Of a DNA stretch of 64,000 nucleotides, positions 32,044 through 49,279 are shown piece after piece; position 1 is the stretch's first letter, and each line of letters begins with the position of its first letter. A program made the position numbers and the translations under genes. The notes under the pieces were generated by a model, which saw only the letters and a list, made by a program, of their open reading frames with translations, was not told the DNA's origin and made no database searches. Location of the stretch: sequence record PX068456.1; one strand, written 5' to 3'. The DNA comes from a phage.

Positions 32044-32057
32044 GAGAGGATTTTTAT

Positions 32058-33361: not shown

Positions 33362-33366
33362 TTCAT

Positions 33367-33385
33367 TAAGCCCCTTCGGGGGCTT
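33367..33385 (+). terminator. hairpin AAGCCCCttcgGGGGCTTT
   Basis: GC stem with short T-run after TerC gene. Confidence 0.4.
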
Positions 33386-33400
33386 TGTTGAGGTGATCTG

Positions 33401-33607
33401 ATGGTGGTTTTACGTGTTCTTTGGATTCTGTTTGAAAATATTTGTTTTGCTTTAGGGCTATTTTGTTTGATTTTTATATTGACAACATATATTGATAACC
33501 ATACAATTACTATCAACAGGAACGGAGAACAGATGTATTGTTTCTCTAGAGATTTTAAAAATTGTGTTGAGACTTTAAATGAGAGGGTTACAAATGAAAA
33601 ACATTAA
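33401..33607 (+). CDS. small hydrophobic protein (68 aa)
   Basis: ORF track; RBS GAGGTGA; overlaps next gene start. Confidence 0.35.
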   Translation: MVVLRVLWILFENICFALGLFCLIFILTTYIDNHTITINRNGEQMYCFSRDFKNCVETLNERVTNEKH

Positions 33608-34184
33608 ATCTTTTATTGTTGCAGTTGTTTTAGGCAGTGCATTGCTGGTAGGTTGTGATGATTCTGAAAATGTACAAAACCAACGTTACCAACAAACACC
33701 AAATCAGATGGTAGATGAACAATATGTAAATCAACCTGCACCTCAAGTTGTTCAAGCAGCACCTGCACAACCTTCAACAGTTGTTGTGCAAGGAGGCGGC
33801 AGTGGTTCTTCTGGTGTAGGTGAGTTTGCTACAGGTATGCTTCTTGGTCATATGTTGAGTGGTAATAGTGGCGGTGGTGGTTATAGAGATGGTGGTAGCA
33901 ATACAACAGTTATTAATAACAACGCTGCTCCTACAACTAACAGTAAAGCATATACAACACAAAAGCATAGTTTTTATGATAAACAAGGGAATACATATAC
34001 AACCACTAAACAAAACACAATTAAGCAGCAAAGTGTACAAACGTATTCACGCCCATCAACAACAAAAGTGAATAGTAATTACTCTGCTCGTAAGTCTTAC
34101 TCAAGCCCTATTAGCTCTTATAGTAAGTCTTCGAAAAGTTATTCTTCGTCGAAACGTAGTTTTAGTAGCTCACGTCGTCGTTAA
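33594..34184 (+). CDS. putative lipoprotein with Gly/Ser-rich low-complexity tail
   Basis: signal peptide with lipobox LLVGC; Ser-Tyr-Lys repeats at C-terminus. Confidence 0.5.
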   Translation: MKNIKSFIVAVVLGSALLVGCDDSENVQNQRYQQTPNQMVDEQYVNQPAPQVVQAAPAQPSTVVVQGGGSGSSGVGEFATGMLLGHMLSGNSGGGGYRDGGSNTTVINNNAAPTTNSKAYTTQKHSFYDKQGNTYTTTKQNTIKQQSVQTYSRPSTTKVNSNYSARKSYSSPISSYSKSSKSYSSSKRSFSSSRRR

Positions 34185-34219
34185 TAATTTAATACAGATT
34201 AAATAAGAAGGAGAAACAG

Positions 34220-35071
34220 ATGAAACTAGAAGTTGGTAAAGTGTATCGCCTGGAAGGTTGGATCTTTAATCAAGAAATTCTTGAGAAGAATAAGGATGGT
34301 TTTGAGTTTGTTGGTACTACCAAAGAAAGTATGCACGATGACGAATACTGTAAATTCGTTGGTAAAAATACAGGTCAAGAACAATTTTGCTTTAAAAGCG
34401 CAATCGGTGATTATGCTTCTGTAATGCCAACGCCAGAAAAAACTTCGAAACAATATACTGTCTTTGGTGTAAAACTTGAAGAGCTTGTAGAACACCCACG
34501 TTTTGAAGAGTTTAAGGTTGCTGCAATGTGCAAGCATTCTGAAATTAAGATACATAATTTGTTTGATTTAGAAGATCGGTTTGATATCTTTATGTATGAT
34601 CGCAGGGGAAAGCATTTTGATGCAACGACTTCAAAATTTGCTGCAACAGAGGATATTAAAATCCTTGATGTTGATACCTTTCTTGAGAGTGTATCGTTTG
34701 TATTCATTCCTAAATGCAAAAAACGTAGTGATCATAAACGTGTGAAAGGAACTCCTCGTAAAAAACGTACTGTAAACAAAGCAACTTTGCACTTCACTTC
34801 TGGTGATAAATATACTCTCAAAGGGTTTGAAAGTGTTTTGTATGATGCTGGAACGGGTAATATCAAGTTTATCATTAAGGCAACCTACAAAGGTACGGTA
34901 TTGCACGAAGAGGCTGTTACACTACCTGTATTCGATATCTCTCGTGTTGAGGTACGGGGTGTTAAAGAGTCCTTCGATCTGGATTTCTTAACCACTAATG
35001 CTACTGGTTATGTTAATCTGGAAGCAGATGGAGCATTTATTACTACAAATTATTTAGATATGTTTGTTTAA
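34220..35071 (+). CDS. hypothetical protein (283 aa)
   Basis: ORF track; RBS AAGAAGGAGAAACAG. Confidence 0.5.
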   Translation: MKLEVGKVYRLEGWIFNQEILEKNKDGFEFVGTTKESMHDDEYCKFVGKNTGQEQFCFKSAIGDYASVMPTPEKTSKQYTVFGVKLEELVEHPRFEEFKVAAMCKHSEIKIHNLFDLEDRFDIFMYDRRGKHFDATTSKFAATEDIKILDVDTFLESVSFVFIPKCKKRSDHKRVKGTPRKKRTVNKATLHFTSGDKYTLKGFESVLYDAGTGNIKFIIKATYKGTVLHEEAVTLPVFDISRVEVRGVKESFDLDFLTTNATGYVNLEADGAFITTNYLDMFV

Positions 35072-35139
35072 TACTTAATTTGTGTTATGATGGTGGTACA
35101 GAGGTATCACCATCTACTAAAGAATATGGAGGAAATTGA

Positions 35140-36243
35140 ATGTCCAGTCCTTTTATCAGTGCCGTAAAAAGCAAACCGTCTGAAATGAGTGTATTCACGG
35201 CAACAACAGAAAAAAGTAAGTCTTTGTTTGCTCCAAGTGCTATGGATGCAAGCCCTGTATATGCCCCTGCTGTTGCACGACCTGTACAAATGCTGCCTCC
35301 AATGTCTCGTGAAGAGATTGAACAAGTTGGTGCTGATGCAGGACTTACTCTTCGTAACCTTAATGCTGAAGTGCTTAAACACCAGCGTTCATCTCAGGGG
35401 GATGAAATGAGTGAACGTTTAACTGCACTTATTAAGCAAGCAAAGCAACTTGATCCTAATTCTATTAAACAATCTAAAGGCTTAGGTAAACTAGTTAAGA
35501 AAGTATTAGGTATGAAAGAAGATTTGTTTGGTGAATTTGACACCATCAATAATCGTATTGAAGGTTTGGTAAAGACACTCCAAACAGACTTGAAAAAAGA
35601 AGAAGATTCTTTACGATATCTGCAACGTTTAGAAGAGGCTATTGCAAAATATGCTCTTAGCTTAAACAGGGATATAGAGCTTCTAACAGCTACTTATGAA
35701 AAAGAAGAAGTTCGCCTTAATACACTACCTGAAAATGAAGTAGAAGAGCGTCAACGTACTCGTGATACTATGGATCTGCTTGAAATTCGTATTGCAGACC
35801 TGAAAGCCTTGCGTTTACTGTGTGTTCAGATGGGGCCACGTGTACAAAGTATGCAGAAAGTATCTGCAAGTTTGATGCGATCAGCCCGTAATATTGTGAA
35901 TAATGTTATTCCTGCTTACTCTGCAAACTTTTCTATGTATATTGAAAGTCTACGCCAGAAGAAAGCAGCCGATACACAGAACAATGTACTGAATGAATTT
36001 AATGCGGCTATTGCAATGGGTAGTGATCTGGCTGCACAAAACCAAATTGAAGCTACGCAACTTGCTAATCGTCAAGTATTGGATATTGAAACATTACGTC
36101 GCGATCAAGAAAACTTAGTTAAAATGTTGGAAGAAACTAACCGAATCAACACTGAAGCCCGTGCTGCTCGTATTGATTACATTCAAGAAGTGCAATCTCT
36201 TGAAGATGGTATGATTCAAACTGTTAAACGTGGTCTACTTTAA
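35140..36243 (+). CDS. TelA/KlaA-like toxic-anion-resistance family protein (coiled-coil)
   Basis: size 367 aa, coiled-coil composition and context next to TerC/TerD/vWA; family call by resemblance only. Confidence 0.4.
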   Translation: MSSPFISAVKSKPSEMSVFTATTEKSKSLFAPSAMDASPVYAPAVARPVQMLPPMSREEIEQVGADAGLTLRNLNAEVLKHQRSSQGDEMSERLTALIKQAKQLDPNSIKQSKGLGKLVKKVLGMKEDLFGEFDTINNRIEGLVKTLQTDLKKEEDSLRYLQRLEEAIAKYALSLNRDIELLTATYEKEEVRLNTLPENEVEERQRTRDTMDLLEIRIADLKALRLLCVQMGPRVQSMQKVSASLMRSARNIVNNVIPAYSANFSMYIESLRQKKAADTQNNVLNEFNAAIAMGSDLAAQNQIEATQLANRQVLDIETLRRDQENLVKMLEETNRINTEARAARIDYIQEVQSLEDGMIQTVKRGLL

Positions 36244-36256
36244 GGAGAAATATATT

Positions 36257-36463
36257 ATGAATATTAAAATTTACAAACTGTCTGGTTCTATGATCGCTGT
36301 CCAGTATGACAATGAAGATCGTTATGTTCTCCTCCAGGATGCCTGGTTAGATGATCCTAATGTATTTACTGTCCTGCGAGAACTACGTTCTGTCTATACC
36401 TATTCTTCTAAAGATGGTTTTGATAGTTCAACGATGGAATTGGTAAAAGAGGAGAATGTGTAA
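36257..36463 (+). CDS. hypothetical small protein (68 aa)
   Basis: ORF track frame; ATG 36257 after AAGGAGAAAT. Confidence 0.45.
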   Translation: MNIKIYKLSGSMIAVQYDNEDRYVLLQDAWLDDPNVFTVLRELRSVYTYSSKDGFDSSTMELVKEENV

Positions 36464-36663
36464 TGAATAAAGATATTCACTTAACTCGTGAAGAATTACA
36501 AACCATTATGGAAGATGCTTTCATTGATGGTTGGAAACAAGGTCAAGAGTCAGATTGGTATGATGCCGAAGACTTTTTGTATTATCATATGACTGCACCT
36601 GTAGACGAGCAAACACATTCTGAAACAACTTTGGCTTTAATTGATCTTAAGGCTGGTGTATAA
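36463..36663 (+). CDS. hypothetical small acidic protein (66 aa)
   Basis: ORF track; coupled starts. Confidence 0.45.
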   Translation: MNKDIHLTREELQTIMEDAFIDGWKQGQESDWYDAEDFLYYHMTAPVDEQTHSETTLALIDLKAGV

Positions 36664-37226
36664 TGGGATGTTTTAGTTTCTTGTGCAAAGAGTCTGGTAA
36701 TGCTGCTCTTTCTACCTCTTTCGATGGTTCTCCTTGCTACCTATTTCTTTTGAAAGGTGGTAAAGTTGTTGAAGAGATGTATGGCAATTATGATAGCTAT
36801 GGTAGTGTTTTCTCTAATGAAGAAGATAAACATGGCAATCGTAAAAGATTTAAGTGGTCTATGCCTTGGGAAGAAGTTTGTAATTTGATGTTCTCTTCCG
36901 ATCTTGGAGATGGTATCGCTATGGTATTAGAAGAGCACTTTACAGGTGAGATCCCAACAGAAAGATCTGAAGAAGACCCTAACCAGGGTTGGGGTGATGG
37001 AGAAGAAGATCCAGATTGCTTCTTCAGCACTGAAAATAATAAATTTAAACGTGTTGACAATCCTTACCACAAAGTGCATAATACTTGCATTGAGACAGAA
37101 GAAGACTCAAAGCTAGAAATTGAAGATGATTTAGTTGTAACTATCTCTTTAAACGAGTTGCAAAAGATCACCAGAGAGGCTTTCTATTTAGGCTGGAGGG
37201 CAGGTAAAGGAGAAGACAGTGCTTAA
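36663..37226 (+). CDS. hypothetical protein (187 aa)
   Basis: ORF track. Confidence 0.5.
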   Translation: MGCFSFLCKESGNAALSTSFDGSPCYLFLLKGGKVVEEMYGNYDSYGSVFSNEEDKHGNRKRFKWSMPWEEVCNLMFSSDLGDGIAMVLEEHFTGEIPTERSEEDPNQGWGDGEEDPDCFFSTENNKFKRVDNPYHKVHNTCIETEEDSKLEIEDDLVVTISLNELQKITREAFYLGWRAGKGEDSA

Positions 37227-37488
37227 ATTTAATATCAAAGACGATAAATCAGATGAACCTAAATGTTTTGGAGAACTTGACGCAGGTGATACATTCGTAT
37301 ATTATGTTGCGTATCAAGATTCTGGTTTAGATACGTTCAGAAACTTAGTGTTTATTAAAGTTAATACAAACCAAGCAATGTGTCTGAACGGTTCACAAAG
37401 AGGTCAACTTAGCTGTATTTCATATGATACAGAAATGGTAGAAGTGGATTTAGAAGTTACTAACATTACACTCAGAAAGGAGAAATAA
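37219..37488 (+). CDS. hypothetical protein (89 aa), GTG start
   Basis: ORF track; AAAGGAGAAGACA RBS. Confidence 0.45.
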   Translation: MLKFNIKDDKSDEPKCFGELDAGDTFVYYVAYQDSGLDTFRNLVFIKVNTNQAMCLNGSQRGQLSCISYDTEMVEVDLEVTNITLRKEK

Positions 37489-37489
37489 T

Positions 37490-38284
37490 ATGTCCAATAA
37501 AATCAGTCTTAAAAAACGTCAAGAAACTCTTACTGTATCTCTGCGTAAGAAAAAGATTAACGATGTTGTTCTTCGTGTCGGTAGCGCCTTAGATATTTCG
37601 GGTAGTATGTGTGAGCTGTATCGTGATGGCACTGTTAGTGATTTTGTAGGTAAACTGCTGCCGTTTGGTATGAAGTTTGATGACAATGCACAGATTGACA
37701 TGTGGGCTTTCAATAGTTCTTCTTTTGAACTGCCTCCTGCAACGGCTGATGTGTATGATGATTATGTCGGCTCTTGCATGTCTAATGTTTGCATCAATGG
37801 TGGTACTGCTTATGCTCCAGTAATGCAGGAGATCTATGATACATACTTCGGTAGTGTACCTATGAAAAATATTACACGCGAAGTCGTTGAGTATGAAGAA
37901 GTCCCAGCTAAGGGTTTCCTTGCTAAACTAACTGGTAAAAAAGAACTTGTAGAAGTAACACGTACTGTTGTAGAACAGGTTGTAGATACTGATGCACAAG
38001 TTGATCGTACTCCTGCAATGATTTTCTTCCAAACTGACGGGGAAAACATGGATACTTCAGCAGTACGTAGCTTACTGAACAAACACCGCAATACGCCTGT
38101 TTACTGGTTTATGGTTGGTGTAGGTAATGCAAACTTTAAATTCCTGAAAGACTTGGCAAAAGAGTACGATAATGTTGATTTTATCGGTATTGCAGATTTG
38201 TCCTTGTCTGATGAAGAACTTTACGATAAATTGTTATCTGAAGAGTTTGGTGAGTGGGTTAAAAAATTCGGAGCAAAAGCGTAA
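37490..38284 (+). CDS. von Willebrand factor A (vWA) domain protein, TerY-like
   Basis: MIDAS motif LDISGSM plus GGTAYAP; adjacent to TerD. Confidence 0.6.
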   Translation: MSNKISLKKRQETLTVSLRKKKINDVVLRVGSALDISGSMCELYRDGTVSDFVGKLLPFGMKFDDNAQIDMWAFNSSSFELPPATADVYDDYVGSCMSNVCINGGTAYAPVMQEIYDTYFGSVPMKNITREVVEYEEVPAKGFLAKLTGKKELVEVTRTVVEQVVDTDAQVDRTPAMIFFQTDGENMDTSAVRSLLNKHRNTPVYWFMVGVGNANFKFLKDLAKEYDNVDFIGIADLSLSDEELYDKLLSEEFGEWVKKFGAKA

Positions 38285-38293
38285 AAAAAACGC

Positions 38294-38322
38294 TTGACTT
38301 TGTAGAAAAGATTAGTAAAATA
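38294..38322 (+). promoter_or_regulatory. sigma70-like promoter TTGACT-17-TAAAAT upstream of TerD gene
   Basis: hexamers read directly. Confidence 0.45.
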
Positions 38323-38358
38323 GACAACGTAAATTAACAACAAAGGAGATAATAAATT

Positions 38359-38955
38359 ATGACTCAGAAAATTTCCCTGAAAAAAGGTTCTAGCGAAAAA
38401 GTTTCTCTGAAAAAGATCGCACCAGCACTGAAACGCATTCGTCTGGAATTCTCTTGGAAATCTAACGAAAAACTGGATCTGGATGTTAGTGCTCTGATTT
38501 GCCGACACAATGCATCTGGTCTGCCGGAACTGTTGTCTCCTCGTCACCTGGTGTGCTACGCACAGAAATTTGATCCTGAACGTTCTACTTTTGCAGGTGA
38601 AGATGTTCGTGATGGTGTAGGACAGATGGAGCAGATTGATGTTACACTGGATAATATCTCTGCTGAAGCACAGGAAATTGCATTCGTAATTACTATTGAT
38701 GACGAAACGGGTAAGAAACGCCTTGGTCACGCTACCGAAGGTTTCCTTAAAATCTTCGATGATGAACGTAATGTTGAACTGCTGGACTTTGACTTCTTGG
38801 CTCCAGAACTTGCAGGTAACACCATTTGCCACGTTGCCTCCCTGGTGCGAGAAGATAGCGAATGGAAACTGAAAGCATATGGTGTAGGTAAAGCTGGGCT
38901 TGACATTTACGATGTAGTTAAAGCGTTTGGCGCTGGCGAAGATTGGTTCGAGTAA
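38359..38955 (+). CDS. TerD-family stress protein
   Basis: N-terminal ISLKKG..VSLKK, DLDVSA, FAGEDVRDG, FVITI and C-terminal GEW-type signature match TerD architecture. Confidence 0.65.
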   Translation: MTQKISLKKGSSEKVSLKKIAPALKRIRLEFSWKSNEKLDLDVSALICRHNASGLPELLSPRHLVCYAQKFDPERSTFAGEDVRDGVGQMEQIDVTLDNISAEAQEIAFVITIDDETGKKRLGHATEGFLKIFDDERNVELLDFDFLAPELAGNTICHVASLVREDSEWKLKAYGVGKAGLDIYDVVKAFGAGEDWFE

Positions 38956-38975
38956 TACATCAAGTAATAAATCAT

Positions 38976-38991
38976 AGCGCCCTTCGGGGCG
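38976..38991 (+). terminator. hairpin GCGCCCttcgGGGCGC
   Basis: GC stem after TerD gene. Confidence 0.4.
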
Positions 38992-39019
38992 CATATTTGA
39001 AATAAAAGAGGAGAAAACA

Positions 39020-39622
39020 ATGAGTATTACTTTAGAAGGTCAAAAACTTATTCGTAGCGGCAATTTTCTTGTAGATATTGACAACAATGAAGATTATGCT
39101 TTAGAAGTTAGTGATGTGCTGTTTGATGCTTTGCAGTCTGGTTTCAATTTTGAAGTTTATGAAGTAATCCGTGGAACTAAACTCAGAGAAACCCTTGGAT
39201 CATCTAGTGATGTTTATTCGGCAATCTGGCAATATTTCGGGTTAATGGAGGGTAAGACATATCTTACTGATAGTTATTCTGAAGATGTTGTTTATCTTGA
39301 TATGGAAGAGTTTCGTCGTCTGTTCAAAAGTGAAGAAAATGAAGAAGAGGGTGAACTTTTTGAAGGAATTACTCTCGAAGGTAATGTTGAAATTGTGTAT
39401 AAAGCAGGAAAAACATTCCACTTACGCGAGAACGGTAAAGCAAAAGTTGATTTTGTAAACAAGACAGTGACAACTGAACATAATTATCTTAAAGATGGTC
39501 AACCAGCTTTTGAACGTGTAAAAATTAAATTTAAAGTGTTGTCTGCACTAGTTACGGATCAAGAACGTATTGATTTTGTAGAAGATGGTGTAGTAACTCA
39601 TACAAAGGTTTACAATATCTAA
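39020..39622 (+). CDS. hypothetical protein (200 aa)
   Basis: ORF track; RBS AAAGAGGAGAAAAC. Confidence 0.5.
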   Translation: MSITLEGQKLIRSGNFLVDIDNNEDYALEVSDVLFDALQSGFNFEVYEVIRGTKLRETLGSSSDVYSAIWQYFGLMEGKTYLTDSYSEDVVYLDMEEFRRLFKSEENEEEGELFEGITLEGNVEIVYKAGKTFHLRENGKAKVDFVNKTVTTEHNYLKDGQPAFERVKIKFKVLSALVTDQERIDFVEDGVVTHTKVYNI

Positions 39623-39714
39623 CAGGGTGTAAGAGGGGGATTATCCCCCTCCACTTGCAAAATAGCCTCTTCTGTGTTACAATAAAAGTTCGTTTAACAA
39701 AATAGGAGGCAAGT

Positions 39715-40224
39715 TTGTCAATAAAAACCTTTGTCGCAATTGCGTTACTATCCTTAACTGCTTTTACATTTACACCTGTTGTGGCGCAAGCCGAAGCTGC
39801 AAACGTAAAAACTGCTAAAGTAGTTCACAAGTGTACAAAGCGTGATAGTAAAGAAAATCTATTAGCTTGTGCAATCTATGCAGAAAGTCGTAATCAAGGA
39901 AAGCGCGGTATGTCTGCTGTTGGTAATGTAGTATTGAATAGGGCGAGAGATTCATATTTCCCTGATACTATAAAAGAAGTTTTGTTTCAAAAAGGACAAT
40001 TCTCTTACACGAAGACATTCAACGTTATGGAACACGATAAGTGGAAAGACGCTAAAGCTATAGCAGAACGTCTACTTTATCTCGATAACCATTTTCCAGA
40101 ATTACGAATTGCATTAGATATTACAAAAGGAGCACTATACTTTAAAAAATCTACAATAAGAGCACACTGGGAAAAAGATATGGTTCTAGTGTACCGCTAC
40201 AAAGAACATCAATTCTATCGCTAA
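39715..40224 (+). CDS. SleB-like cell-wall hydrolase with signal peptide (TTG start)
   Basis: CAIYAESRNQG...VGNVVLNRARDSYFPDTIKEVLFQKGQF resembles Hydrolase_2/SleB signature. Confidence 0.45.
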   Translation: MSIKTFVAIALLSLTAFTFTPVVAQAEAANVKTAKVVHKCTKRDSKENLLACAIYAESRNQGKRGMSAVGNVVLNRARDSYFPDTIKEVLFQKGQFSYTKTFNVMEHDKWKDAKAIAERLLYLDNHFPELRIALDITKGALYFKKSTIRAHWEKDMVLVYRYKEHQFYR

Positions 40225-40743: not shown

Positions 40744-40915
40744 TACTGGTGAAGTTGTAAAATCTTGGGATGATCTTAGTGGTATCCCTACAGATAAACT
40801 GATTAAACTGCGTGATGTTTGTCGTGATCATCTTAACGAAACATATAAAGAGTATATGGAAGCACGAGATCACAGTTTAGCTATCCAAATGGAACTCGCA
40901 AAACGTAATCAATAG
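40721..40915 (+). CDS. hypothetical small protein (64 aa)
   Basis: ORF track; AAGGAGG RBS. Confidence 0.4.
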   Translation: MKTIGINDTGEVVKSWDDLSGIPTDKLIKLRDVCRDHLNETYKEYMEARDHSLAIQMELAKRNQ

Positions 40916-40972
40916 GTAAAACCATTTGGACTTTTTAGTCTAAAAATGCTAAAGTAATAATACGGAGGGAGT

Positions 40973-41536
40973 ATGATATTTCACATAACTCCCTATCTTT
41001 CTGGAGATATTGGAAAAGGTATCAATGACACAATAAGTGTCTTACCAGAAGATAGTTGGATTTGCCTAAGAGACATTGATACAATGTTTCTTCTTCCAGA
41101 ACAACCTGCTTGGTTGGAATCAATAGTCCGTTCAAATCCTGATTTTGATGTTCTTGGTGCATCTTGTAATAGATTGGGATCAACATATCAATTATTTAAT
41201 AATGAAAGAAGTGAAGATCCAAATATATTACACCACATTGAGATTGCAAAAAGAGCACATCTAGAATGGGGAAACTCAGTAGAGGAAGTACCTACAGATG
41301 CTATCTTAGCAGGATTCTTTCTTCTCTTTCGTAAGAGTCTGTGGAATGAAATCCCTTTTGAGGAAAGATCAATACAGTTTGATATAATTTTCTCTAAAGC
41401 ATTACACGCTAACAATAAAAGGCTAGGTTTACTACGTGGGTTATATTTATTTCACACATACCGTTTAGGTAATGATGATCCTAGAAAAGCTGTTTCACAC
41501 CTTTTACATTGTCAAGACATGAATAAAATTATTTAA
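40973..41536 (+). CDS. putative glycosyltransferase-like protein (DxD-type, GT-A-like)
   Basis: LRDIDTMF DxD-like motif; context next to three other glycosyltransferases. Confidence 0.35.
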   Translation: MIFHITPYLSGDIGKGINDTISVLPEDSWICLRDIDTMFLLPEQPAWLESIVRSNPDFDVLGASCNRLGSTYQLFNNERSEDPNILHHIEIAKRAHLEWGNSVEEVPTDAILAGFFLLFRKSLWNEIPFEERSIQFDIIFSKALHANNKRLGLLRGLYLFHTYRLGNDDPRKAVSHLLHCQDMNKII

Positions 41537-41545
41537 GGAGTTATT

Positions 41546-42232
41546 TTGGAAAATACAAAAATTGGTGTTGGTGTTATTACTGTAGGTAAGCGTCCTCTTA
41601 AAGATTATCTTGTGACTGATCCTAATGCTACTTTTGTTGTACAGTATGATCGGGAACGAAAAGGTGTTGCATATGCCCGTAATGAACTGATGAAAAAGTT
41701 TTATGATGAAGGGTATGATTACTGGTTTATTTTTGATGATGATTGCTATCCGGTTGTGCCAGGTTGGGAAACATATTTTGTAAAACAGGCTAAGGAAAAT
41801 GGCTGGGATTTCTTTGGTATGCCTGAATATTTTAAAGATAAAGTAAAAGGTATTGAAGGTGAAGTGGTTATTTGGGAACTAGGTATGTGCCAGTTTGGTA
41901 TGTATTCCCGTGCAGTTATTGAGAAAGCTGGCTATTTCCGTTCATACACCCACGGTTATGGATATGAAGATGCAGAGTGGATTCAGCGCGTTCCACTGGC
42001 AGGTTTGAACCGAGGTATTCACGGCGTACCATGTCCTATTCGAATTATGGCGTTTATCCATCCTGACGATGTGTTTGGAGATAATCCTTTACCTTTTGCA
42101 AATCTGTCAAAAGAAGAGAAAGAACAGGGGATTGGTGTAAACTGGGAACAATATAAACAATCACTGGAGGATCTTCGCAATGGTAAAACTTTTATCTCTT
42201 ATGAGGAGGCTCAAAAATATGGTAAATCCTAA
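41546..42232 (+). CDS. glycosyltransferase family 2-like protein (TTG start)
   Basis: YDYWFIFDDDCYP DxD motif and YGYEDAEW. Confidence 0.5.
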   Translation: MENTKIGVGVITVGKRPLKDYLVTDPNATFVVQYDRERKGVAYARNELMKKFYDEGYDYWFIFDDDCYPVVPGWETYFVKQAKENGWDFFGMPEYFKDKVKGIEGEVVIWELGMCQFGMYSRAVIEKAGYFRSYTHGYGYEDAEWIQRVPLAGLNRGIHGVPCPIRIMAFIHPDDVFGDNPLPFANLSKEEKEQGIGVNWEQYKQSLEDLRNGKTFISYEEAQKYGKS

Positions 42233-43193
42233 TACTCCTGTACTTAAGTGTGATAATAAGTTAGGCAGTGGTTGTGATTACCATCGTATTGTAATGCCAT
42301 TTGCGGGAAATACGTTTAAGCCTAAGAAAGACGTTTTAGTTTTTAATAGAGTGTATTCTCGTGGATCAGACGAAGTTAAACGCCTGAAGGCACAAGGTGT
42401 TAAGATTATTGTTGATTTAGATGACTTTTATTCGCTTAATCCTGAACATTATATGGCTGGCGTATTTACTAATCACTCAAAGACTATTGTAGAGATGGTT
42501 AAGTTAGCAGATGTTGTTACTGTAACAACAGAATACCTAGCTTACAAAATTCGTCATTTAAATCGTAATGTTGTCGTTATTAGAAACGCACTACCTTACG
42601 ATGAAGGTCAATTTACTTTGACAAAAGACCGTTATTCTGACACGCCTATCGTTTGGGCTGGAGGAGCAAGCCATGAACCTGATTTATCTCTTGTAGCTAA
42701 CACATTTGATGATACGCTATTGACAATTGCAGGGTATGAAGTGTATCCTTCTGCACCTGTTGGAAATAATAGTCAGTATCTAACTACTGCGGAGTGGGTT
42801 AAAGTAAAACGTAAAATTCCAAATGCACAGTATAAACCAGCTATTAAAAATTTAGGTGAGTATATGTCTGTGTATGACGGTCACAGTATTGCAATTGCTC
42901 CTCTGGTAGATAATGACTTCAACAACTGTAAAAGCAATCTGAAGATTTTGGAAGCAGGTGCAAAGGGTCTTCCTATTATCTGTTCTCCTGTGCTGCCGTA
43001 CTTCAATCCTGTGGATGCAAAGGCTGTTATTTATGCAGACTCCAAAGCATCTTGGCATTATGAAGTTGTCAAGCTAATGAGGAACCCTAGATACACAGAA
43101 GATCGTGGTATGATGCTTGCAGAACACGTTCGTCTTAATTATAATCTTGCAGATGCCAATGAACTGCGTCGTCAAGTTATTGAAAGTCTTTAA
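42219..43193 (+). CDS. GT-B-fold glycosyltransferase (paralogue 1)
   Basis: KSNLKILEAGAKGLPIICSP resembles GT1/GT4 E..G..EA.A.G.P motif; paralogous to 43205 ORF. Confidence 0.5.
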   Translation: MVNPNTPVLKCDNKLGSGCDYHRIVMPFAGNTFKPKKDVLVFNRVYSRGSDEVKRLKAQGVKIIVDLDDFYSLNPEHYMAGVFTNHSKTIVEMVKLADVVTVTTEYLAYKIRHLNRNVVVIRNALPYDEGQFTLTKDRYSDTPIVWAGGASHEPDLSLVANTFDDTLLTIAGYEVYPSAPVGNNSQYLTTAEWVKVKRKIPNAQYKPAIKNLGEYMSVYDGHSIAIAPLVDNDFNNCKSNLKILEAGAKGLPIICSPVLPYFNPVDAKAVIYADSKASWHYEVVKLMRNPRYTEDRGMMLAEHVRLNYNLADANELRRQVIESL

Positions 43194-43204
43194 CAAGGAG
43201 CCAT

Positions 43205-44149
43205 ATGCCTAATATTATTCTTGACACACGTGGACATGAAAGGTATAGTGTATGTGATTTTCATAGAATCATTTTGCCATATAAACGCAAACTGACCATT
43301 AATCCTAAGCATAATATTTTTGTGTTCAATGGAGTACCAACTCGTGGAAAGCCAGGTTTCCTGGCTCTTAAACAACTTGGGTTTAAATTGGTAATGGATC
43401 TGGATGATTCTTTAATTATTCCTGAAGGGCATATGTTGGAAGGATTATTTGAAAATCAAATCCGAGACGACCTAAAATGGTTCCTTGAAAGAAGCGATCT
43501 TGTAACTACAACAACTCCAGCATTAAAGGTTGAATTAAGCCAATACAATGATAATGTACATATTGTGCCTAACGGACTACCTTTTGATGAAGGGCAGTTT
43601 GTTCTTACTAAAGATCGTTATTCTAAAAGCCCACTGGTTTGGGCGGGAAGTGAAACACATAAACATGATTTAGCAATTCTTCCTACTTTTGGTAAAGATT
43701 TAACGTTATGTGGATTTCGTAGAGATCACGAAGAGTTAAGTAGTGCTCAATGGTTGCAAATTAAAGAAGAGATTCAACCAGATTGTGTTTATGAAGGTAT
43801 TCGTCCTTATGAGTGTTATATGGAGGCATACGATGGTCATCAAATCTCCATAGCTCCATTAGTAAATAATCATTTTAATAATGCCAAAAGTAATTTAAAA
43901 ATTCTTGAGGCTGGTGCTAAAGGTTTGCCACTCGTTTGTTCTCCACGAGAGAACTACTATACGGAAGAATTTAAAGATCTAATCTTCTTTGCTGATTCAG
44001 TTAAAGAGTGGAAAGATGTTGTAGAATACTTAATCGAATCTCCTGATGTTTGTATTGAGAAAGGATTAGCTCTTGCTAAGTATGTAAGAGATAACTACAA
44101 TATTGATGATTTAAATGAAACCCGCAGACTGCTTATCGAGGATTTATAA
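43205..44149 (+). CDS. GT-B-fold glycosyltransferase (paralogue 2)
   Basis: shares LPFDEGQF.LTKDRYS, YDGH.I.IAPLV.N.FNN.KSNLKILEAGAKGLP with 42219 ORF. Confidence 0.5.
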   Translation: MPNIILDTRGHERYSVCDFHRIILPYKRKLTINPKHNIFVFNGVPTRGKPGFLALKQLGFKLVMDLDDSLIIPEGHMLEGLFENQIRDDLKWFLERSDLVTTTTPALKVELSQYNDNVHIVPNGLPFDEGQFVLTKDRYSKSPLVWAGSETHKHDLAILPTFGKDLTLCGFRRDHEELSSAQWLQIKEEIQPDCVYEGIRPYECYMEAYDGHQISIAPLVNNHFNNAKSNLKILEAGAKGLPLVCSPRENYYTEEFKDLIFFADSVKEWKDVVEYLIESPDVCIEKGLALAKYVRDNYNIDDLNETRRLLIEDL

Positions 44150-44418
44150 TGAACACTTTTGATTTTGAGTATAAACAAGATAATAAAGAACCTATTATTG
44201 TTGAAGTAGATTACTATTATGAAGAACCTAATCCTTTTTCACGAGAAAGTGATTGGGATTATTATGGTGGCCTTATTGTTGATGGTATTAGGTTCTATTC
44301 TGGTACAAAAGAACTTTTTGATATAGATATTTCACCATCGGAAATTGTTTACCAATTTAAGAAACATATGGAAGATTTGGAAATGCAATATATTATGGAG
44401 ACAAACGAATCATTTTAG
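44149..44418 (+). CDS. hypothetical protein (89 aa)
   Basis: ORF track. Confidence 0.45.
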   Translation: MNTFDFEYKQDNKEPIIVEVDYYYEEPNPFSRESDWDYYGGLIVDGIRFYSGTKELFDIDISPSEIVYQFKKHMEDLEMQYIMETNESF

Positions 44419-44430
44419 TAGGAGAATCAT

Positions 44431-46203
44431 GTGTCTTATGTTGTAAATAAATATGGGTATAACATTGACCTAAGTCAAGAAGGACATACTGGGTGTCCTC
44501 GTTGTATGAAAGGAGGGCGTGATCGCTCACAAAACAATTTGATGGTATATGGCTTAGATGCCGATGAAGACCATCGAGGCGCACATTGTTTTTCTTGTGG
44601 CTTTACTATCCCTGATCAAAAATGGTTAAATGCACACGGCGAAGAAATTGAAGAGGAGGATATCTTGGGTAGTGAGTTTAATCCAGAAGTACATGATAAG
44701 CTAAAAGCCAGCACTGGAACTAATCCAAAAGGTTATCGCGGTATTCGTGAAGATATCTCTAAACCTTTCGGTGTACGCTATATGTACGATGAAGCTACTG
44801 GCGAAGTAATTTCAACATTATACCCTACAACTAAAGATTACAATATTGCTGGGTATAAACAACGTATCGATCCAAAAGATTTTTCACATCCTATTGGTGA
44901 AACAGGAAAGGATTGTGATCTTTTTGGGGAGTTTAAATATCGTAACCACAGCGGTACTATTCTAATCGTTGGTGGTGAACACGATATGCTGGCTGCAACA
45001 CAGATGCTAAAAGATTATAACAAGGGCGGTAAATATCCTGTTCCTGCTGTAGTATCTGGTACTTGTGGCGAAACATCTCTGCATAAGCAGCTTCAACATC
45101 GTTATAAATTTTTAGATCAATTTAAAAAGATTGTTCTGTGTATGGATAATGATGAAGCTGGACGTGCAGCAGTTGAGAAATGTGTTAAAATCTTACCACG
45201 TAATAAAGTTTATGTGATGGAACTAACGGATGTTAAAGATCCTAACCAGGCACTAGTAGAAGGAAAAATTGATCACTTTCTTGATCGTTTTTTCAAAGCT
45301 AAACTGTACACACCTGCTGGTGTTTATGCTTCTAACGTACTGTATGAAGCAGCCTTGGAATGCCTGGAAGCTAAAATGATCACCCTTCCTCCATTCATGC
45401 GTGTTGCTTCTAATATGTTAGGTGGAGGCTTGGTAGAAGAAGAAATTACTGTTATACTTGCAAAAACAAGTATCGGTAAAACACTGTTGGTTAACGAGAT
45501 TACAAAGCACATTATTCTTGCACACCCAGAACATACTCTTGGTATTTTATCTTTGGAGGCAACGTATAAGAAGTATTCTCGTAACTTACTGTCTTCATTC
45601 TTGCACATCCCTCTTCACCGTAAAACAAAAGAAGAGAAGGAAAAGATTTTAAAAGATAATGAAGAAAAGATTCGTGATTTTTACGAACGAGAAGATGGAA
45701 CACCACGTTTCTATGTTTGTGATGATCGTGGAGCTAACGTAGATGTGATTAAAGAGAAGGTTCTGGAAATGATTATTTATTTCGGAGTAACCATTCTTGT
45801 TATCGACCCTTATTCTGACTTGCTTTCTGGTATGGACGTGTCACAACAAGAGGAACTTGCGACGTGGCTCAAACGCATTATGAAAGAGTACGCAATTACC
45901 ATTGTTGTAATTTCACACGTTAAAAAGTCTTCTAACAATAGTAATGAACATATTGTAGAAGATGATGCAATGGGTAGTAGCTTCCTTGCTAAAGGTGCTG
46001 GTATCACAATTGCGCTGGAGCGTGATAAACAAGCTGAAGATCCTATGGAACGTAACCGCACATATTGCTACATCCTAAAGAACCGTGAGTTCTCAGAGAC
46101 TGGTGCAGCAGGTAGTTTCTTCTATGAGATTAAAACAGCGACACTTCACGATTACGATCAATACACAAGTAACCCAGAGAATATTCCTGATGGTTCTTAT
46201 TAA
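44431..46203 (+). CDS. bifunctional DNA primase/helicase (T7 gp4-like), GTG start
   Basis: N-terminal Zn finger CPRC...CFSC, TOPRIM-like IVGGEHDM / CMDNDEAGR, C-terminal P-loop and Walker B VLVIDPYSD. Confidence 0.7.
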   Translation: MSYVVNKYGYNIDLSQEGHTGCPRCMKGGRDRSQNNLMVYGLDADEDHRGAHCFSCGFTIPDQKWLNAHGEEIEEEDILGSEFNPEVHDKLKASTGTNPKGYRGIREDISKPFGVRYMYDEATGEVISTLYPTTKDYNIAGYKQRIDPKDFSHPIGETGKDCDLFGEFKYRNHSGTILIVGGEHDMLAATQMLKDYNKGGKYPVPAVVSGTCGETSLHKQLQHRYKFLDQFKKIVLCMDNDEAGRAAVEKCVKILPRNKVYVMELTDVKDPNQALVEGKIDHFLDRFFKAKLYTPAGVYASNVLYEAALECLEAKMITLPPFMRVASNMLGGGLVEEEITVILAKTSIGKTLLVNEITKHIILAHPEHTLGILSLEATYKKYSRNLLSSFLHIPLHRKTKEEKEKILKDNEEKIRDFYEREDGTPRFYVCDDRGANVDVIKEKVLEMIIYFGVTILVIDPYSDLLSGMDVSQQEELATWLKRIMKEYAITIVVISHVKKSSNNSNEHIVEDDAMGSSFLAKGAGITIALERDKQAEDPMERNRTYCYILKNREFSETGAAGSFFYEIKTATLHDYDQYTSNPENIPDGSY

Positions 46204-46213
46204 GGAGAGAAAT

Positions 46214-46609
46214 ATGAAAGACAACGAAAATATCCTCTATGGGGTATCCCCTTCTGCGTTAGGGTATGATTATACGAAAACTATTGCCAAGTTTAAATTT
46301 CAAGATGGATCGGAGTTAGAACCATACGGTTATGCTTATGGCGAACATTTGTGGTTTGAGGATGGTTGCCTATACCTTCTCATTCAAACTACCAGTGGTT
46401 TTGTGGGAGAGCTTGTAGATCGCATGCTGAAAAATGTTAGTGATAAAGTTGTTCTTGATATCGCTAGTAAGGATGAAAACATTAATAACATTGTTTCCAC
46501 TTTTAGTGGCTTAACAGGAACAGTTAAAATTGACCGTGTAGGCTTGAGAAATACCAATGGTGTCCCTAATTGCCTTATTAAAGTACAATTAAGTGCTGAC
46601 AATAAATAA
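46214..46609 (+). CDS. hypothetical protein (131 aa)
   Basis: ORF track frame; ATG 46214 after AAGGAGAGAAAT. Confidence 0.5.
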   Translation: MKDNENILYGVSPSALGYDYTKTIAKFKFQDGSELEPYGYAYGEHLWFEDGCLYLLIQTTSGFVGELVDRMLKNVSDKVVLDIASKDENINNIVSTFSGLTGTVKIDRVGLRNTNGVPNCLIKVQLSADNK

Positions 46610-46613
46610 CAAG

Positions 46614-46631
46614 AAGGGGCGAAAGCCCCTT
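46614..46631 (+). terminator. hairpin AAGGGGCgaaaGCCCCTT
   Basis: GC stem, weak T-run. Confidence 0.4.
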
Positions 46632-46699
46632 TACAAAACAATTAATTTATGGTACAGTATTAACAAATTAAGACTTTAGAAATATTTTAAGGAGGGAGA

Positions 46700-49279
46700 A
46701 TGGGAGCTTTTACTTTCGACATTGAAAGTAACAACTTGCTTAATGACGAAAGTGTAGATTACTTGGCAAGTCCATATCGTTTAAAAGATAGTTTTGCAAT
46801 GCACTGTATTGTGTGTGAAAGTCATGATACTGGAGAGATTATTGCTTTCCATGATGGTGATAAATATCTTTTCGATGGTCGTCCGTATATTGAGACTGAC
46901 GGAAAGTATGAATACCGACTGGAGGAATATGAGCATTTAGAATATACCCATTTCCCTCTTAAAGATTTTCCTGATTTTGTAAATGGAACAGGTAAATTTA
47001 AAGGTAATTCAAACTATAAAATTACCAAAGTAGTTGGACACAACATCATTAACTTCGACTTACTGGCAATTAAATTATTTTTTAAACTCAACTACAGTAT
47101 TAAGTACAATACTTGGGGTAATAGTAACATTGAAATTTGTGATACTATGATCTTAAGTAAGACACTAAACCCTGATCGCTTCGGTGGTCATAGTCTGGCA
47201 GAGTTATCTAAGAAAGCTGGAGGGGATGTTAAAATTGATTTTAGAAAAAACATCCCTGAAACTGAAAGATTTAGAACATTTGCAGCAGATATGCTGTATT
47301 ACTGTATTTACGATAACAAAGCTAACACCGCAGTGTTCCGTTATTTGATGGAAGAGTGGGGTGATTATAATAAGTGGTCTGAACCATTTAACTTAGAACA
47401 ACGTGTAGCTGATATTATTACACGTCAAGAGCACCGTGGCTTTGCTTTCAATATGAAACAAGCAGAAGATAATATTCGTGATCTGGATGCTCGAATGGAA
47501 GCATGTCGTTTAGAGGCAGAACCTGTACTACCTCCTAAACCTGCTACTAAAGGTTATTTGAAATCATTCATTCCACCTAAACTACAGTTTAAAAAGAATG
47601 GTGAACCTTCAAGTAACATGATAAAGTTTGCAGAGAAACATTCTGGTGAACTTGTACAAAAAGAAGATGGTTGGTGGTTATTTGCATTAGGTAAAGAGTT
47701 TAAACTACCTATTCCAGCAGAAGAACCTATTTGTGATCCTACAGTACCTGCTACTTTAGACGACACTACACATATTAAAAATTGGTTAGTTGGTTTAGGT
47801 TGGAGTCCATCTGAATATAAAGATAAAGATATCACTCTTAAATCTGGCACTAAGATTAAGAAAGATGAAGCACAAATGGAGAAAGCTATTCGTGACTATG
47901 TTGATCAAACATTAGCATCTAACTTCTGCCAGGATAGATGTGATCATCTGGAGTGCACACCAGAAACTTTGGAATGGAAACTAAGAGATCGTATTGCTAA
48001 AGCTAAAGGTCGTGGTGTTAAAGTGCTTACTAACCCTTCCTTTACAAAAGGGCAAGAGAAGGATATTTGTCCTAACTTGGAAGCACTAGGTGAAAAGTTT
48101 CCTTACGCTACGCAGATTGTGCAGTATCTTACGTATAAACATCGTAGAAACTCTATTCTAGGTGGTGGTGCTGATTGGGAAGAGGATGAAGAGGATTACG
48201 ATAAAGGTTATCTGGCGGCAGTAAGGGCTGATGGTCGTATACCAACTCCTGCTGCAACGTGTGATGCAGCTACGTCTCGTATGAAACATAGGTTAGTAGC
48301 AAATATTCCACGTGTAACATCTCTGTACGGATATGAAATGCGTAACTTATTTGGTGTAGAAGTTCCAAAATACTTCCAAATTGGTTATGACTTTGATTCT
48401 CTTGAGGCAAAGATAGAATCACACTACTGTTGGCGGTACGAGCAGGAACCACACGAATATTGTAATGCTCTATTGTTGGAAAAACCTAATGATGTTCATA
48501 CAATGATGGCTCGACGTATTTCTGACACTATTGGTCGTAAGTTTGAACGAAGCCCTGCTAAATCTGTTAAGTATGGTATTACTTATGGTGCTCAAGCTGC
48601 AAAAGTAGCAAAAACTATTGGTAGTGATATGTATACAGGACAGCTTGTATACGATGCTTTCTGGGAAGCTGCAAAACCTCTTGCACTTCTTAAAGAACGT
48701 CTGCATGATTTTTGGGTTAAAACAGGTAAGAAATACATTCTTGGTATTGATGGTAGGAAAGTACCTACACGATCTGCACACGCAATACTTAACTCTCTGT
48801 TCCAGAGTGGTGGTGTTATTTGTGCAAAAAGAGCAATGGTTATCTACGATGATCTTATCGAAGAAGAAGGATTAGCTGTTGACTTTTTTGTTGATGACTG
48901 GAAAAATAAGTCATTCGTTCAACAAATGATTGCATATCACGATGAAGCACAGCTTGAAGTAACTCGTGATCTCGTGCATTTTAAATGGTTCTCTAAAGAA
49001 TCTTTAGGTTGGACTCAAGTTGATGATCCAGAAGAACAAAAGAAAATTGATAAAGAATGTTTGGATAAAGTTAACGCCTGGAAAGAAGAGGAAGAGAAAC
49101 GTACTGGCAAGATTTGGGCTAACGTACATGAATCTCCGAAAGGTGGTTGGTTTACAGCCTATAGTCGTGCTGGAGAGTTAGCATCTATCGCTGTTAATAA
49201 AGCTGGTGAGTATTACAATCTTAATGTACCTCTCACTGCTGGTTACGATGTTGGTAACTCATGGGCCAGTTGTCACTGA
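46700..49279 (+). CDS. family A DNA polymerase with 3'-5' exonuclease domain
   Basis: Exo I FDIES, Exo II HNIINFD; motif B-like R..AKSVKYGITYGA; motif C HDE. Confidence 0.8.
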   Translation: MGAFTFDIESNNLLNDESVDYLASPYRLKDSFAMHCIVCESHDTGEIIAFHDGDKYLFDGRPYIETDGKYEYRLEEYEHLEYTHFPLKDFPDFVNGTGKFKGNSNYKITKVVGHNIINFDLLAIKLFFKLNYSIKYNTWGNSNIEICDTMILSKTLNPDRFGGHSLAELSKKAGGDVKIDFRKNIPETERFRTFAADMLYYCIYDNKANTAVFRYLMEEWGDYNKWSEPFNLEQRVADIITRQEHRGFAFNMKQAEDNIRDLDARMEACRLEAEPVLPPKPATKGYLKSFIPPKLQFKKNGEPSSNMIKFAEKHSGELVQKEDGWWLFALGKEFKLPIPAEEPICDPTVPATLDDTTHIKNWLVGLGWSPSEYKDKDITLKSGTKIKKDEAQMEKAIRDYVDQTLASNFCQDRCDHLECTPETLEWKLRDRIAKAKGRGVKVLTNPSFTKGQEKDICPNLEALGEKFPYATQIVQYLTYKHRRNSILGGGADWEEDEEDYDKGYLAAVRADGRIPTPAATCDAATSRMKHRLVANIPRVTSLYGYEMRNLFGVEVPKYFQIGYDFDSLEAKIESHYCWRYEQEPHEYCNALLLEKPNDVHTMMARRISDTIGRKFERSPAKSVKYGITYGAQAAKVAKTIGSDMYTGQLVYDAFWEAAKPLALLKERLHDFWVKTGKKYILGIDGRKVPTRSAHAILNSLFQSGGVICAKRAMVIYDDLIEEEGLAVDFFVDDWKNKSFVQQMIAYHDEAQLEVTRDLVHFKWFSKESLGWTQVDDPEEQKKIDKECLDKVNAWKEEEEKRTGKIWANVHESPKGGWFTAYSRAGELASIAVNKAGEYYNLNVPLTAGYDVGNSWASCH

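Follow-up and report, generated by a model that had tools for sequence, protein, structure and literature searches.

Four tandem glycosyltransferase (GT) genes, here designated GT1 to GT4, were found in the phage sequence PX068456.1, and the locus raises the question of which molecule their products modify. The whole stretch of DNA analyzed, referred to as the window, comprises 64,000 nucleotides. An earlier, sequence-only reading of the window had interpreted the genes as a system for sugar hypermodification of phage DNA, while naming virion proteins and the host surface as alternative targets. The gene identities and the position on which this interpretation was built were retained in the present analysis, while the hypermodification of DNA was not, and the alternatives fit the comparative evidence better. 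The acceptor is very probably something other than DNA. Our tentative preference, somewhat short of an even chance, is that the four enzymes and a phage-encoded RmlA-D pathway build a short rhamnose-containing glycan stepwise on a non-DNA acceptor, most probably on Ser/Thr residues of virion proteins; that the acceptor is a virion protein in particular is proposed with marginally less assurance.

The array was recovered at positions 40973-44149 as previously described, with four plus-strand open reading frames (ORFs) that overlap or are separated by gaps of 9-12 nt (Table 1). Region 40900-44450 shares 98-99.4% identity with over 50 phages of Escherichia that belong to Justusliebigvirus, the phi92-like genus of the subfamily Stephanstirmvirinae; SD2, EC.P2, PHB05, and the BASEL phage EmilieFrey (Bas61) are among them. 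The window is from a Justusliebigvirus (phi92-like) E. coli myophage. It is collinear with approximately 24.2-90.6 kb of EmilieFrey in the reverse complement, and the full annotation of this 98%-identical genome served as a proxy for the genome parts beyond the window. Since the array genes are kept in more than 140 phage genomes, the four ORFs are not chance ORFs. Their base composition and G+C content at third codon positions (GC3) agree with those of their neighbors, and RefSeq relatives already label the genes as glycosyltransferases (phi92 gp162-165). The cassette is real, conserved, and already annotated in relatives.

Table 1. Features of the glycosyltransferase array and of the genes downstream of it in the window
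Feature	Position	Strand	Basis
GT1, minimal GT-A-fold glycosyltransferase, 187 aa	40973..41536	+	phrog_14179, E=6e-113; DxD = D34-I-D36
GT2, GT-A, GT2/GT7-like family, 228 aa, TTG start	41546..42232	+	phrog_2456, E=3e-79; DDD and ED motifs
GT3, GT4-family-like GT-B, 324 aa	42219..43193	+	phrog_7162, E=4e-149
GT4, second GT4-family-like GT-B paralogue, 314 aa	43205..44149	+	Pfam Glyco_trans_1_2, 25.8 bits vs 25 cut-off
Small acidic ORF, 89 aa, isoelectric point (pI) 4.1	44149..44418	+	phrog_4240, E=8e-35
Primase-helicase	44431-46203	+	ORF list; EmilieFrey annotation; Toprim_2/DnaB_C Pfam on syntenic gene of contig L012
131-aa ORF between primase-helicase and PolA	within 44431..49279	+	ORF list
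Family-A DNA polymerase (PolA)	46700-49279	+	EmilieFrey annotation; DNA_pol_A Pfam on syntenic gene of contig L012

The sequence-only reading had recognized two GT-A genes of the DxD type at the head of the array, followed by two paralogous GT-B genes with long shared motifs. Profile and structure searches bore out both assignments: all four proteins matched PHROG glycosyltransferase families (E-values from 3e-79 to 4e-149), GT4 matched Pfam, and folds were obtained for GT1 and GT4. No family for any of the four was found in NCBIfam. Since GT1, GT2, and GT4 gave nothing meaningful when compared by sequence and by profile with the sequences in PDB, a fold search was needed. GT1 is of the GT-A, DxD type according to its model and its invariant DxD motif. 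Its AlphaFold (AF2) model is a compact GT-A fold with a predicted local distance difference test score (pLDDT) of 93.3, and residues D34, D36, N66, R67, H88, E131, D137, and H161 are invariant among 25 homologues. While GT1 had no Pfam, NCBIfam, or PDB-sequence match, its Foldseek matches were GT-A enzymes only, the best being the Listeria dTDP-rhamnose-dependent transferase RmlT (E=1.5e-4), followed by LARGE1, LH3/COLGALT1, and SpsA. GT2 is of the same type by its motifs, of which D64-D65-D66 and E141-D142 are invariant, and by its family matches. A full HMMER scan placed 1486 representatives in the GT2 family, and among 148 sampled members compared with Pfam, 67 matched Glyco_transf_7C, 47 matched Glycos_transf_2, and 19 weakly matched TAGT.

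The GT-B paralogues GT3 and GT4 share 42% identity over 311 aa (E=4e-83), including long motifs such as PFDEGQF.LTKDRYS and KSNLKILEAGAKGLP. Both have a GT-B fold like that of the CAZy GT4 family, GT4 by its model and Pfam match and GT3 by paralogy. The GT4 model (pLDDT 94.4, predicted template modeling score 0.92) is of the GT-B fold, and its top PDB matches in Foldseek all belong to the CAZy GT4 family: BshA, TreT, MshA, and PglA (E of approximately 3e-9), as well as GlgM, GtfC/Gtf3, SdgB, TarM, and PimA. In BFVD, the top matches were group-1 glycosyltransferases encoded by giant viruses, archaeal viruses, and uncultured phages. The pair has no obvious instance of the canonical EX7E motif, and E235 is invariant. 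In the ORF list, GT3 begins at an upstream ATG (42180), which is a less likely start than the ATG at 42219, judging from the GAGGAGG Shine-Dalgarno sequence located 9 nt upstream of the latter; translated from 42219, GT3 has the same 324-aa length as its database orthologues, and its N-terminus aligns with that of GT4. The 'putative disaccharide synthase' label of the LpxB type, which GT3 and GT4 carry in EmilieFrey, was rejected, as no LpxB was found in Pfam, NCBIfam, or the top 50 structural matches of GT4.

No hydrophobic or transmembrane segment was found in any of the four proteins (maximum grand average of hydropathy over 19 aa of 1.2 or less). The pI is 5.2-5.6 for GT1, GT2, and GT4 (5.6 for GT1) and 8.2 for GT3. 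A protein-borne glycan is favored because the four enzymes lack transmembrane segments and three of them are acidic, because of the enzyme folds and families, and because GtfC/Gtf3 and SdgB, the structural neighbors of GT4 that are similar to it in size, glycosylate proteins. A seroconversion system of the GtrABC type, in which the O-antigen is glucosylated by membrane proteins (the flippase GtrA, the bactoprenol GT GtrB, and the serotype-specific GT GtrC), was also considered and rejected on the lack of hydrophobic segments and of any Gtr match in Pfam or NCBIfam.

A sugar donor is encoded by the phage itself. In EmilieFrey, the equivalog cut-offs of NCBIfam are exceeded by RmlA (471 bits) and RmlC (260 bits), and RmlB and RmlD are recognized by strong Pfam matches; the RmlA-D genes are approximately 70 kb away from the array, outside the window. 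RmlD homologues and the glycosyltransferases share one phage set (107 Escherichia records per search and 8-10 Klebsiella records), a co-occurrence that is confounded by common ancestry. In 2020, Olsen et al. noted that phi92-like and Phapecoctavirus genomes encode the dTDP-rhamnose pathway in full, and suggested the placement of rhamnose on hydroxymethylated nucleotides (PMC7552041). Phapecoctavirus ESCO37 is reported to be devoid of rmlA and rmlB (PMC10269720). It is reasonable to infer that at least one of the transferases uses dTDP-L-rhamnose. The supply of the donor by the phage, together with the best structural match of GT1 being a dTDP-rhamnose transferase, favors a glycan on protein. 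Genes of NDP-sugar enzymes were also observed directly next to GT homologues in distant relatives, namely an epimerase/dehydratase gene flanked by GT1 and GT2 in contig L012 (135 kb), a UDP-glucose dehydrogenase gene in the Streptomyces phage KimJongPhill, epimerase, radical-SAM, and DegT genes in locus L009, and DegT and epimerase genes in the 47-kb phage contig L020. In the last of these, a cluster that exceeds 10 kb (10001-20534) and starts with a GT1 homologue includes a GT-D-like gene, two TOD1_MUCI70 genes, a DegT aminotransferase, an epimerase/dehydratase, a Methyltransf_24, and a Stealth-like gene; so elaborate a glycan pathway is unusual in a phage of this size.

The genomic contexts of homologues pointed to virion morphogenesis. 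In the small-phage contexts examined, the GT homologues were always within or at the head of packaging and morphogenesis genes. For example, Cellulophaga phage phi18:2 encodes gp39, with a C-terminal GT1-like domain, and a Methyltransf_24 protein between a MuF-like gene and the protease and capsid genes. In locus L017, a GT1-like gene, a Glycos_transf_2 gene, a polysaccharide deacetylase gene, and two Methyltransf_24 genes are situated between the terminase and the portal and capsid genes, with a UDP-galactopyranose mutase gene upstream. A GT2-like and GT-B pair is located directly 5' of terS, terL, portal, MuF, protease, and capsid genes in contig L010, an acetyltransferase gene and a GT2-family gene precede terS and terL in locus L018, and glycosyltransferase genes are found directly ahead of terS in KimJongPhill and the Gordonia phage JonJames. 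Similarly, in the prophages of Pseudomonas silvicola and three Pseudomonas sp. (L026-L028 and L030, approximately 6600-13700), the GT2-like and GT3-like genes are the first of an operon, in the order of a Big_2 Ig-like gene, a terminator hairpin, the GT2-like gene, the GT-B gene (with a 4-nt overlap), a phage metallopeptidase gene, terS (DUF2280), terL, and portal; the GC3 of these GT genes is in line with that of their neighbors. In total, linkage to morphogenesis genes or sugar O-methyltransferases was seen in at least eight phage or prophage loci apart from the present phage. Enzymes such as sugar O-methyltransferases, deacetylases, and acetyltransferases typically belong to pathways for protein and polysaccharide glycans, and the position of homologues within or ahead of the virion-morphogenesis operons of unrelated phages favors a protein glycan.

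Two further comparisons favor a glycan on protein. In the chromosomes of Burkholderia dolosa (L016, 3025-8440) and Trinickia (L029, 2765-8918), a GT3 homologue directly follows the gene of an inverse-autotransporter adhesin of the invasin/intimin type (IAT_beta, Invasin_D3, and Big_1 domains) and a 556-571-aa partner, for which a Pfam scan gave no match. The B. dolosa homologue has 43% identity to GT3 and the native G+C content of 65%, compared with 37% in the phage. By the arrangement of its genes, this looks like an uncharacterized adhesin-glycosylation locus. The proteins of the Burkholderia adhesin cluster were also compared with phage proteins, such as an intimin-domain tail fiber, and no similarity was found. 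The second comparison is with the Cheoctovirus glycosyltransferases, to which GT2 is distantly homologous: tblastn gave 25-27% identity over 160-200 aa, with E-values down to 5e-8, in 341 Mycobacterium phage records, the matching part being the domain at the N-terminus of Boomer gp102. Capsid proteins are glycosylated in cluster F1 phages, Che8 among them (PMC11256854; PMC12619734).

The composition of the cassette varied among relatives. The syntenic site of Klebsiella phage phi1_175008 has just two of these genes, GT1 (73% identity) and a GT-B gene of the GT3 type (66% identity to GT3 and 38% to GT4), followed by the 89-aa ORF and the primase gene. In contig L012, the order is GT1, epimerase, GT2, a GT3-type gene, a small ORF, and primase. 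These two gene sets suggest that GT1 and the GT3-type GT-B form the core of the lineage, while GT4 appears to be a later duplicate. The identity of GT3 to other GT-B homologues is 46% in contig L012 and 42-43% in the Pseudomonas prophages. By their recurrence, GT2 and GT3 appear to be a separately mobile pair, which was found again in the 36-kb siphovirus-like contig L010 (27% and 32-37% identity, respectively) and in the prophages of four Pseudomonas genomes (42-45% and 42-43%). The 89-aa ORF keeps its place 3' of the GT-B gene both in the distant contig L012 and in the Klebsiella phage, where its identity is 47%, and no NCBIfam family was found for it. Its inclusion in the mobile cassette was rejected, as it is kept only within the lineage and is not present after the cassette in contig L010; whether it is a member of the cassette is uncertain.

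The favored scheme, whose donor assignment, stepwise order, and acceptor we infer, would have the four enzymes act sequentially with the phage RmlA-D as a soluble, cytoplasmic glycan-assembly line. A glycan of up to approximately four residues would be attached to virion proteins before or during assembly, most probably at Ser/Thr, and would give the particle a coat resembling those of chloroviruses and of mycobacteriophages of the Che8 type. The GT-A pair is likely inverting, with at least one member using the phage-made dTDP-beta-L-rhamnose, while the GT-B paralogues of the CAZy GT4 family are likely retaining and would draw on host UDP- or GDP-sugars. GT1, the GT3-type GT-B, and the Rml proteins would represent the conserved core, to which GT2 and GT4 may have been added to lengthen or branch the glycan. 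In its broadest form, the proposal is that the Stephanstirmvirinae (phi92-like and phAPEC8-like phages) coat their virions with a self-made rhamnose-containing glycan through the cassette and RmlA-D, that this is the first such shield among phages with Gram-negative hosts, and that GT2 and GT3 together, as found at the start of late operons in the Pseudomonas prophages and small siphoviruses, mark a widespread, unrecognized module for virion glycosylation; this is possible, and we hold it with less confidence than the scheme itself.

Several points weigh against a virion acceptor. The contexts discussed above came from approximately 12 hand-picked loci and do not constitute a statistical survey. 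No glycosylated virion protein was found to be reported for phi92-like or Phapecoctavirus phages in the accessible literature. In the present phage, the array adjoins replication rather than structural genes, with no sugar methyltransferase alongside, so the linkage observed in other phages is not seen here. A position next to the terminase genes would also suit late modification of DNA or a prophage moron, and similarity in GT fold does not settle the acceptor. Lastly, a Ser/Asn-rich C-terminal tail of the tail sheath, present as a Ser-rich C-terminus in Justusliebigvirus and the Klebsiella relative, was considered as an acceptor linked to the glycosyltransferases and was rejected, as it is missing in Phapecoctavirus ESCO13 despite the presence of all four genes.

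The sequence-only reading had also placed the array inside the DNA replication module. This was correct on the downstream side, where one small ORF separates the array from the primase-helicase and PolA genes, but on the upstream side the array borders on a stress/envelope module of the Ter type. The Ter-type module, a complete phage-borne one, lies directly 5' of the array (28044-40224, plus strand) and encodes an AAA ATPase, a HAD hydrolase, a Ter-associated PRTase_3 (ComF-like), a Macro domain, the TerC membrane protein, TelA, a vWA-TerF-like protein, and TerD, as well as several unknowns and a SleB-like cell-wall hydrolase with a signal peptide. Bacterial Ter modules are linked to tellurite resistance, to phage inhibition, and to a predicted nucleoside-like metabolite. 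Within the module, a predicted lipoprotein of 201 aa (33579-34184, plus strand; lipobox LLVGC) has a low-complexity body that is extremely rich in Ser, Thr, Gln, and Asn and a basic, Ser-rich tail (...SYSSPISSYSKSSKSYSSSKRSFSSSRRR); its Pfam scan gave no match.

A promoter and terminator scan of 37-50 kb gave no more sites than shuffled sequence. Perfect GC-rich hairpins were observed in intergenic positions at 38977-38992 (GCGCCCCGAAGGGCGC), after TerD, and at 46614-46631 (AAGGGGCTTTCGCCCCTT), before PolA. Both score as minus-strand terminators, though the flanking genes are on the plus strand, and they may be bidirectional or regulatory. On the scale of the window, the sign of the GC skew flips at approximately 16 kb and 53 kb, matching the switches in gene orientation from a minus-strand early region to the plus-strand Ter, GT, and replication block and then to the minus-strand tail-fiber genes. 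The phage carries at least 14 tRNA genes, next to which are four small 'putative aminoacyl-tRNA synthetases' of 144-190 aa (bas61_0077/0078, at approximately 24264-25260 of the window and on the minus strand in EmilieFrey, and bas61_0187/0198); of the three scanned, one is YqeY-like (GatB C-terminal-like) and two had no significant Pfam match. Additionally, MG065645, MG065689, and other records labeled as 'Campylobacter phage' (A145, A110a, C11, and C7; host C. jejuni) match Justusliebigvirus or Vequintavirus genomes of E. coli phages at 98-99% identity and are probably mislabeled or contaminant isolates.

Among the alternatives to a virion glycan, a doubtful one is that the enzymes remodel the host envelope. 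Rhamnose and other sugars would be added to lipid-linked intermediates, such as the lipopolysaccharide (LPS) core, the enterobacterial common antigen (ECA)/N4 glycan receptor (NGR), or undecaprenyl-linked glycans, at the inner membrane face, so that the phage masks its own receptors. If true, this would provide superinfection exclusion, spare the progeny adsorption to debris, and represent a novel way for a lytic phage to mask receptors. The receptors of these phages are indeed the NGR/ECA glycan and the outer-core glucose of LPS (PMC8594841; PMC11990801), enzymes with lipid or cell-wall acceptors (PimA, PglA, TarM, and MshA) are among the structural neighbors of GT4, and RmlT decorates wall teichoic acid. 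The array is also contiguous with envelope-related genes of the Ter-type module (TerC, TelA, the lipoprotein, and the secreted SleB-like hydrolase). However, a membrane anchor, a flippase, a Gtr-like partner, and transmembrane segments are all absent, the replacement of surface glycans is slow within a single lytic cycle, and several homologues are located between head genes. Although the cassette is also found in Pseudomonas prophages, where surface conversion is common, it is co-oriented and tightly packed there with terS and terL behind a terminator, which implies late lytic expression rather than expression in the lysogen.

Another alternative, which we regard as unlikely, is the glycosylation of a cytoplasmic protein of the host or phage or of a small metabolite, for example to inactivate a host factor or defense protein, or to modify the predicted nucleoside-like product of the adjacent Ter-associated PRTase/HAD module. 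It is consistent with the soluble, acidic nature of the enzymes, with a position that suggests early or middle expression, with the small-molecule acceptors of BshA, MshA, and TreT among the top structural matches of GT4, and with the array directly following the Ter-type module and its PRTase_3, HAD, and Macro genes. This module, however, is absent beside the glycosyltransferases outside the lineage (contig L010, the prophages, and phi18:2). Furthermore, four enzymes and a dedicated rhamnose pathway would be elaborate for an inactivation, and no specific target is indicated.

The reading that survived least well is the one favored by the sequence-only account, in which the transferases would build a rhamnose-containing glycan on a modified phage base as a protection from nucleases, perhaps at specific sequences such as Dcm-like methylase sites. 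We consider it very unlikely, given the lack of a recognizable base hydroxylase in EmilieFrey, the lack of membership in a DNA-GT family, and the published restriction sensitivity. The array does adjoin the primase-helicase and polymerase genes, GT2 has weak matches to TAGT and to phrog_842 (the beta-glucosyl-hydroxymethylcytosine alpha-glucosyltransferase family), EmilieFrey encodes a C5-cytosine methyltransferase and a divergent ThyX, and the idea is already in print (PMC7552041; PMC10844046). As both Olsen et al. and a 2024 paper propose rhamnose on DNA, the DNA reading is a published but untested hypothesis; the 2024 paper, in restating the 'rhamnose modification' idea, points out its contradiction with restriction data (PMC10844046).

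In its known forms, DNA glycosylation depends on a hydroxylated base, the product of a TET/JBP dioxygenase or of an enzyme of the ThyA family (bioRxiv 10.1101/2023.12.21.572611; PMC13326640). A search of the rest of the genome for a hydroxymethylase or other base-modifying enzyme, carried out in EmilieFrey, returned only ThyX, with no ThyA and no TET/JBP. Pfam scans found Thymidylat_synt, Tet_JBP, and 2-oxoglutarate (2OG) oxygenase domains in none of 64 otherwise unassigned proteins (54 unannotated proteins of at least 105 aa in concatenated form, six vaguely annotated proteins, and four scanned singly), within the limits of Pfam sensitivity, and a ThyA-family hydroxymethylase, a 5-hydroxycytosine (5hoC) synthase, a TET/JBP, or another 2OG dioxygenase was found neither in this set nor among the annotated proteins. 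The Dcm-like C5 methylase is present without an oxidase partner. The thymidylate synthase is a divergent ThyX of 323 aa (L004, 19839-20810, minus strand, outside the window), which matches PF02511 (E=4e-9), scores 35.5 bits in TIGR02170 compared with the equivalog cut-off of 87.9 bits, has no PDB sequence match, and keeps the motif xHRxxSxxxxSxR. Its use as a hydroxymethylase is a remote possibility at most, as it has no precedent, the ThyX motif is kept, and the DNA is restriction-sensitive. An NT5C-like nucleotidase gene and a thymidine kinase gene adjoin the ThyX gene.

The TAGT match of GT2 (23.3 bits over 60 residues) is below the gathering score of 27.5, in a family that mainly matches Glyco_transf_7C and Glycos_transf_2, and appears to reflect generic GT-A similarity; as a lead to TET-associated DNA glycosylation it was ruled out by the family-wide Pfam scan and the lack of TET/JBP. 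Neither the alpha- nor the beta-glucosyltransferase of T4 is among the top 50 structural matches of GT4 in PDB or BFVD. Temperate prophages and small siphoviruses that have no visible base-modification genes carry the same cassette, and a ThyA or TET neighbor was seen in none of the approximately 12 GT-homologue contexts. Maffei et al. (2021) described Justusliebigvirus Bas60-62 as 'exceptionally susceptible' to restriction-modification (RM) systems 'despite a putative dTDP glycosylation machinery' (PMC8594841), and HincII cut the DNA of Justusliebigvirus ESCO8, ESCO9, and ESCO32 and of Phapecoctavirus isolates in restriction fragment length polymorphism typing, where only three other phages resisted (PMC10269720). 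No nucleoside mass spectrometry data on the virion DNA of these phages were found in the literature. The repeated idea of rhamnose on DNA thus conflicts with restriction data from the same literature. Bulk glycosylation of the DNA is highly improbable, and this evidence against DNA as the acceptor favors a protein glycan. A rare, sequence-specific modification through an unrecognized oxidase is conceivable.

The phi92-like and phAPEC8-like phages have among the broadest lysis host ranges of coliphages and are included in therapy and biocontrol collections. If their virion proteins are glycosylated, virion glycosylation by phages would extend from actinobacteriophages to enterobacterial phages, which would bear on how the particles adsorb, how stable they are, and how they are recognized by antibodies and cleared, and the cassette would offer a portable four-enzyme glycan-assembly line for engineering.

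Compared with known systems, the locus shares with the DNA glycosylation of the T4, TET-5mYOX, and ThyA-homologue types (T4 alpha/beta-GT, TAGT/JGT-like GT-A, and RB69/DLP3 arabinosyl-5hoC) the presence of several GT-A and GT-B genes near the DNA-metabolism genes of a lytic phage. A phage-encoded supply of the NDP-sugar is also common to both, as RB69 encodes the synthesis of UDP-arabinose (PMC13326640). In contrast to these systems, no hydroxylated-base synthase is found here, the enzymes fall outside the TAGT and T4 GT families, and published data show the DNA to be sensitive to restriction both in vivo and in vitro. The chlorovirus PBCV-1 encodes its own rhamnose-nucleotide synthesis and the rhamnosyltransferase/methyltransferase A064R, and its cytoplasmic GT-A enzymes build an N-linked capsid glycan without host machinery. 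The combination of a rhamnose-nucleotide pathway with GT-A transferases is shared with the present phage, while PBCV-1 is a giant virus of eukaryotes and A064R was not among the top 50 structural hits of GT1. GtfC/Gtf3 and SdgB, which glycosylate serine-rich-repeat proteins and adhesins, are small GT-B enzymes of approximately 330 aa like GT4, and GtfC is its best size-normalized structural match (TM 0.66/0.63). Although their sequence identity to GT4 is 13-16% and no adhesin-like acceptor was identified in the phage, the conservation of a GT3 homologue beside an invasin-type adhesin gene in Burkholderia and Trinickia recalls such adhesin systems.

Virion glycosylation of the Che8 type, as it occurs in cluster F mycobacteriophages, was reportedly described by Freeman and colleagues in 2023. 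The present phage differs from that type in its Gram-negative host, in being a large lytic myovirus, in the absence of an adjacent O-methyltransferase, and in its full dTDP-rhamnose pathway and two extra GT-B enzymes of the CAZy GT4 type. As in the Che8 type, the soluble glycosyltransferases are phage-encoded outside the structural module, several transferases are expected to act in series, and GT2 itself is approximately 26% identical (E of approximately 5e-8) to the GT-A domain at the N-terminus of the Cheoctovirus enzyme.

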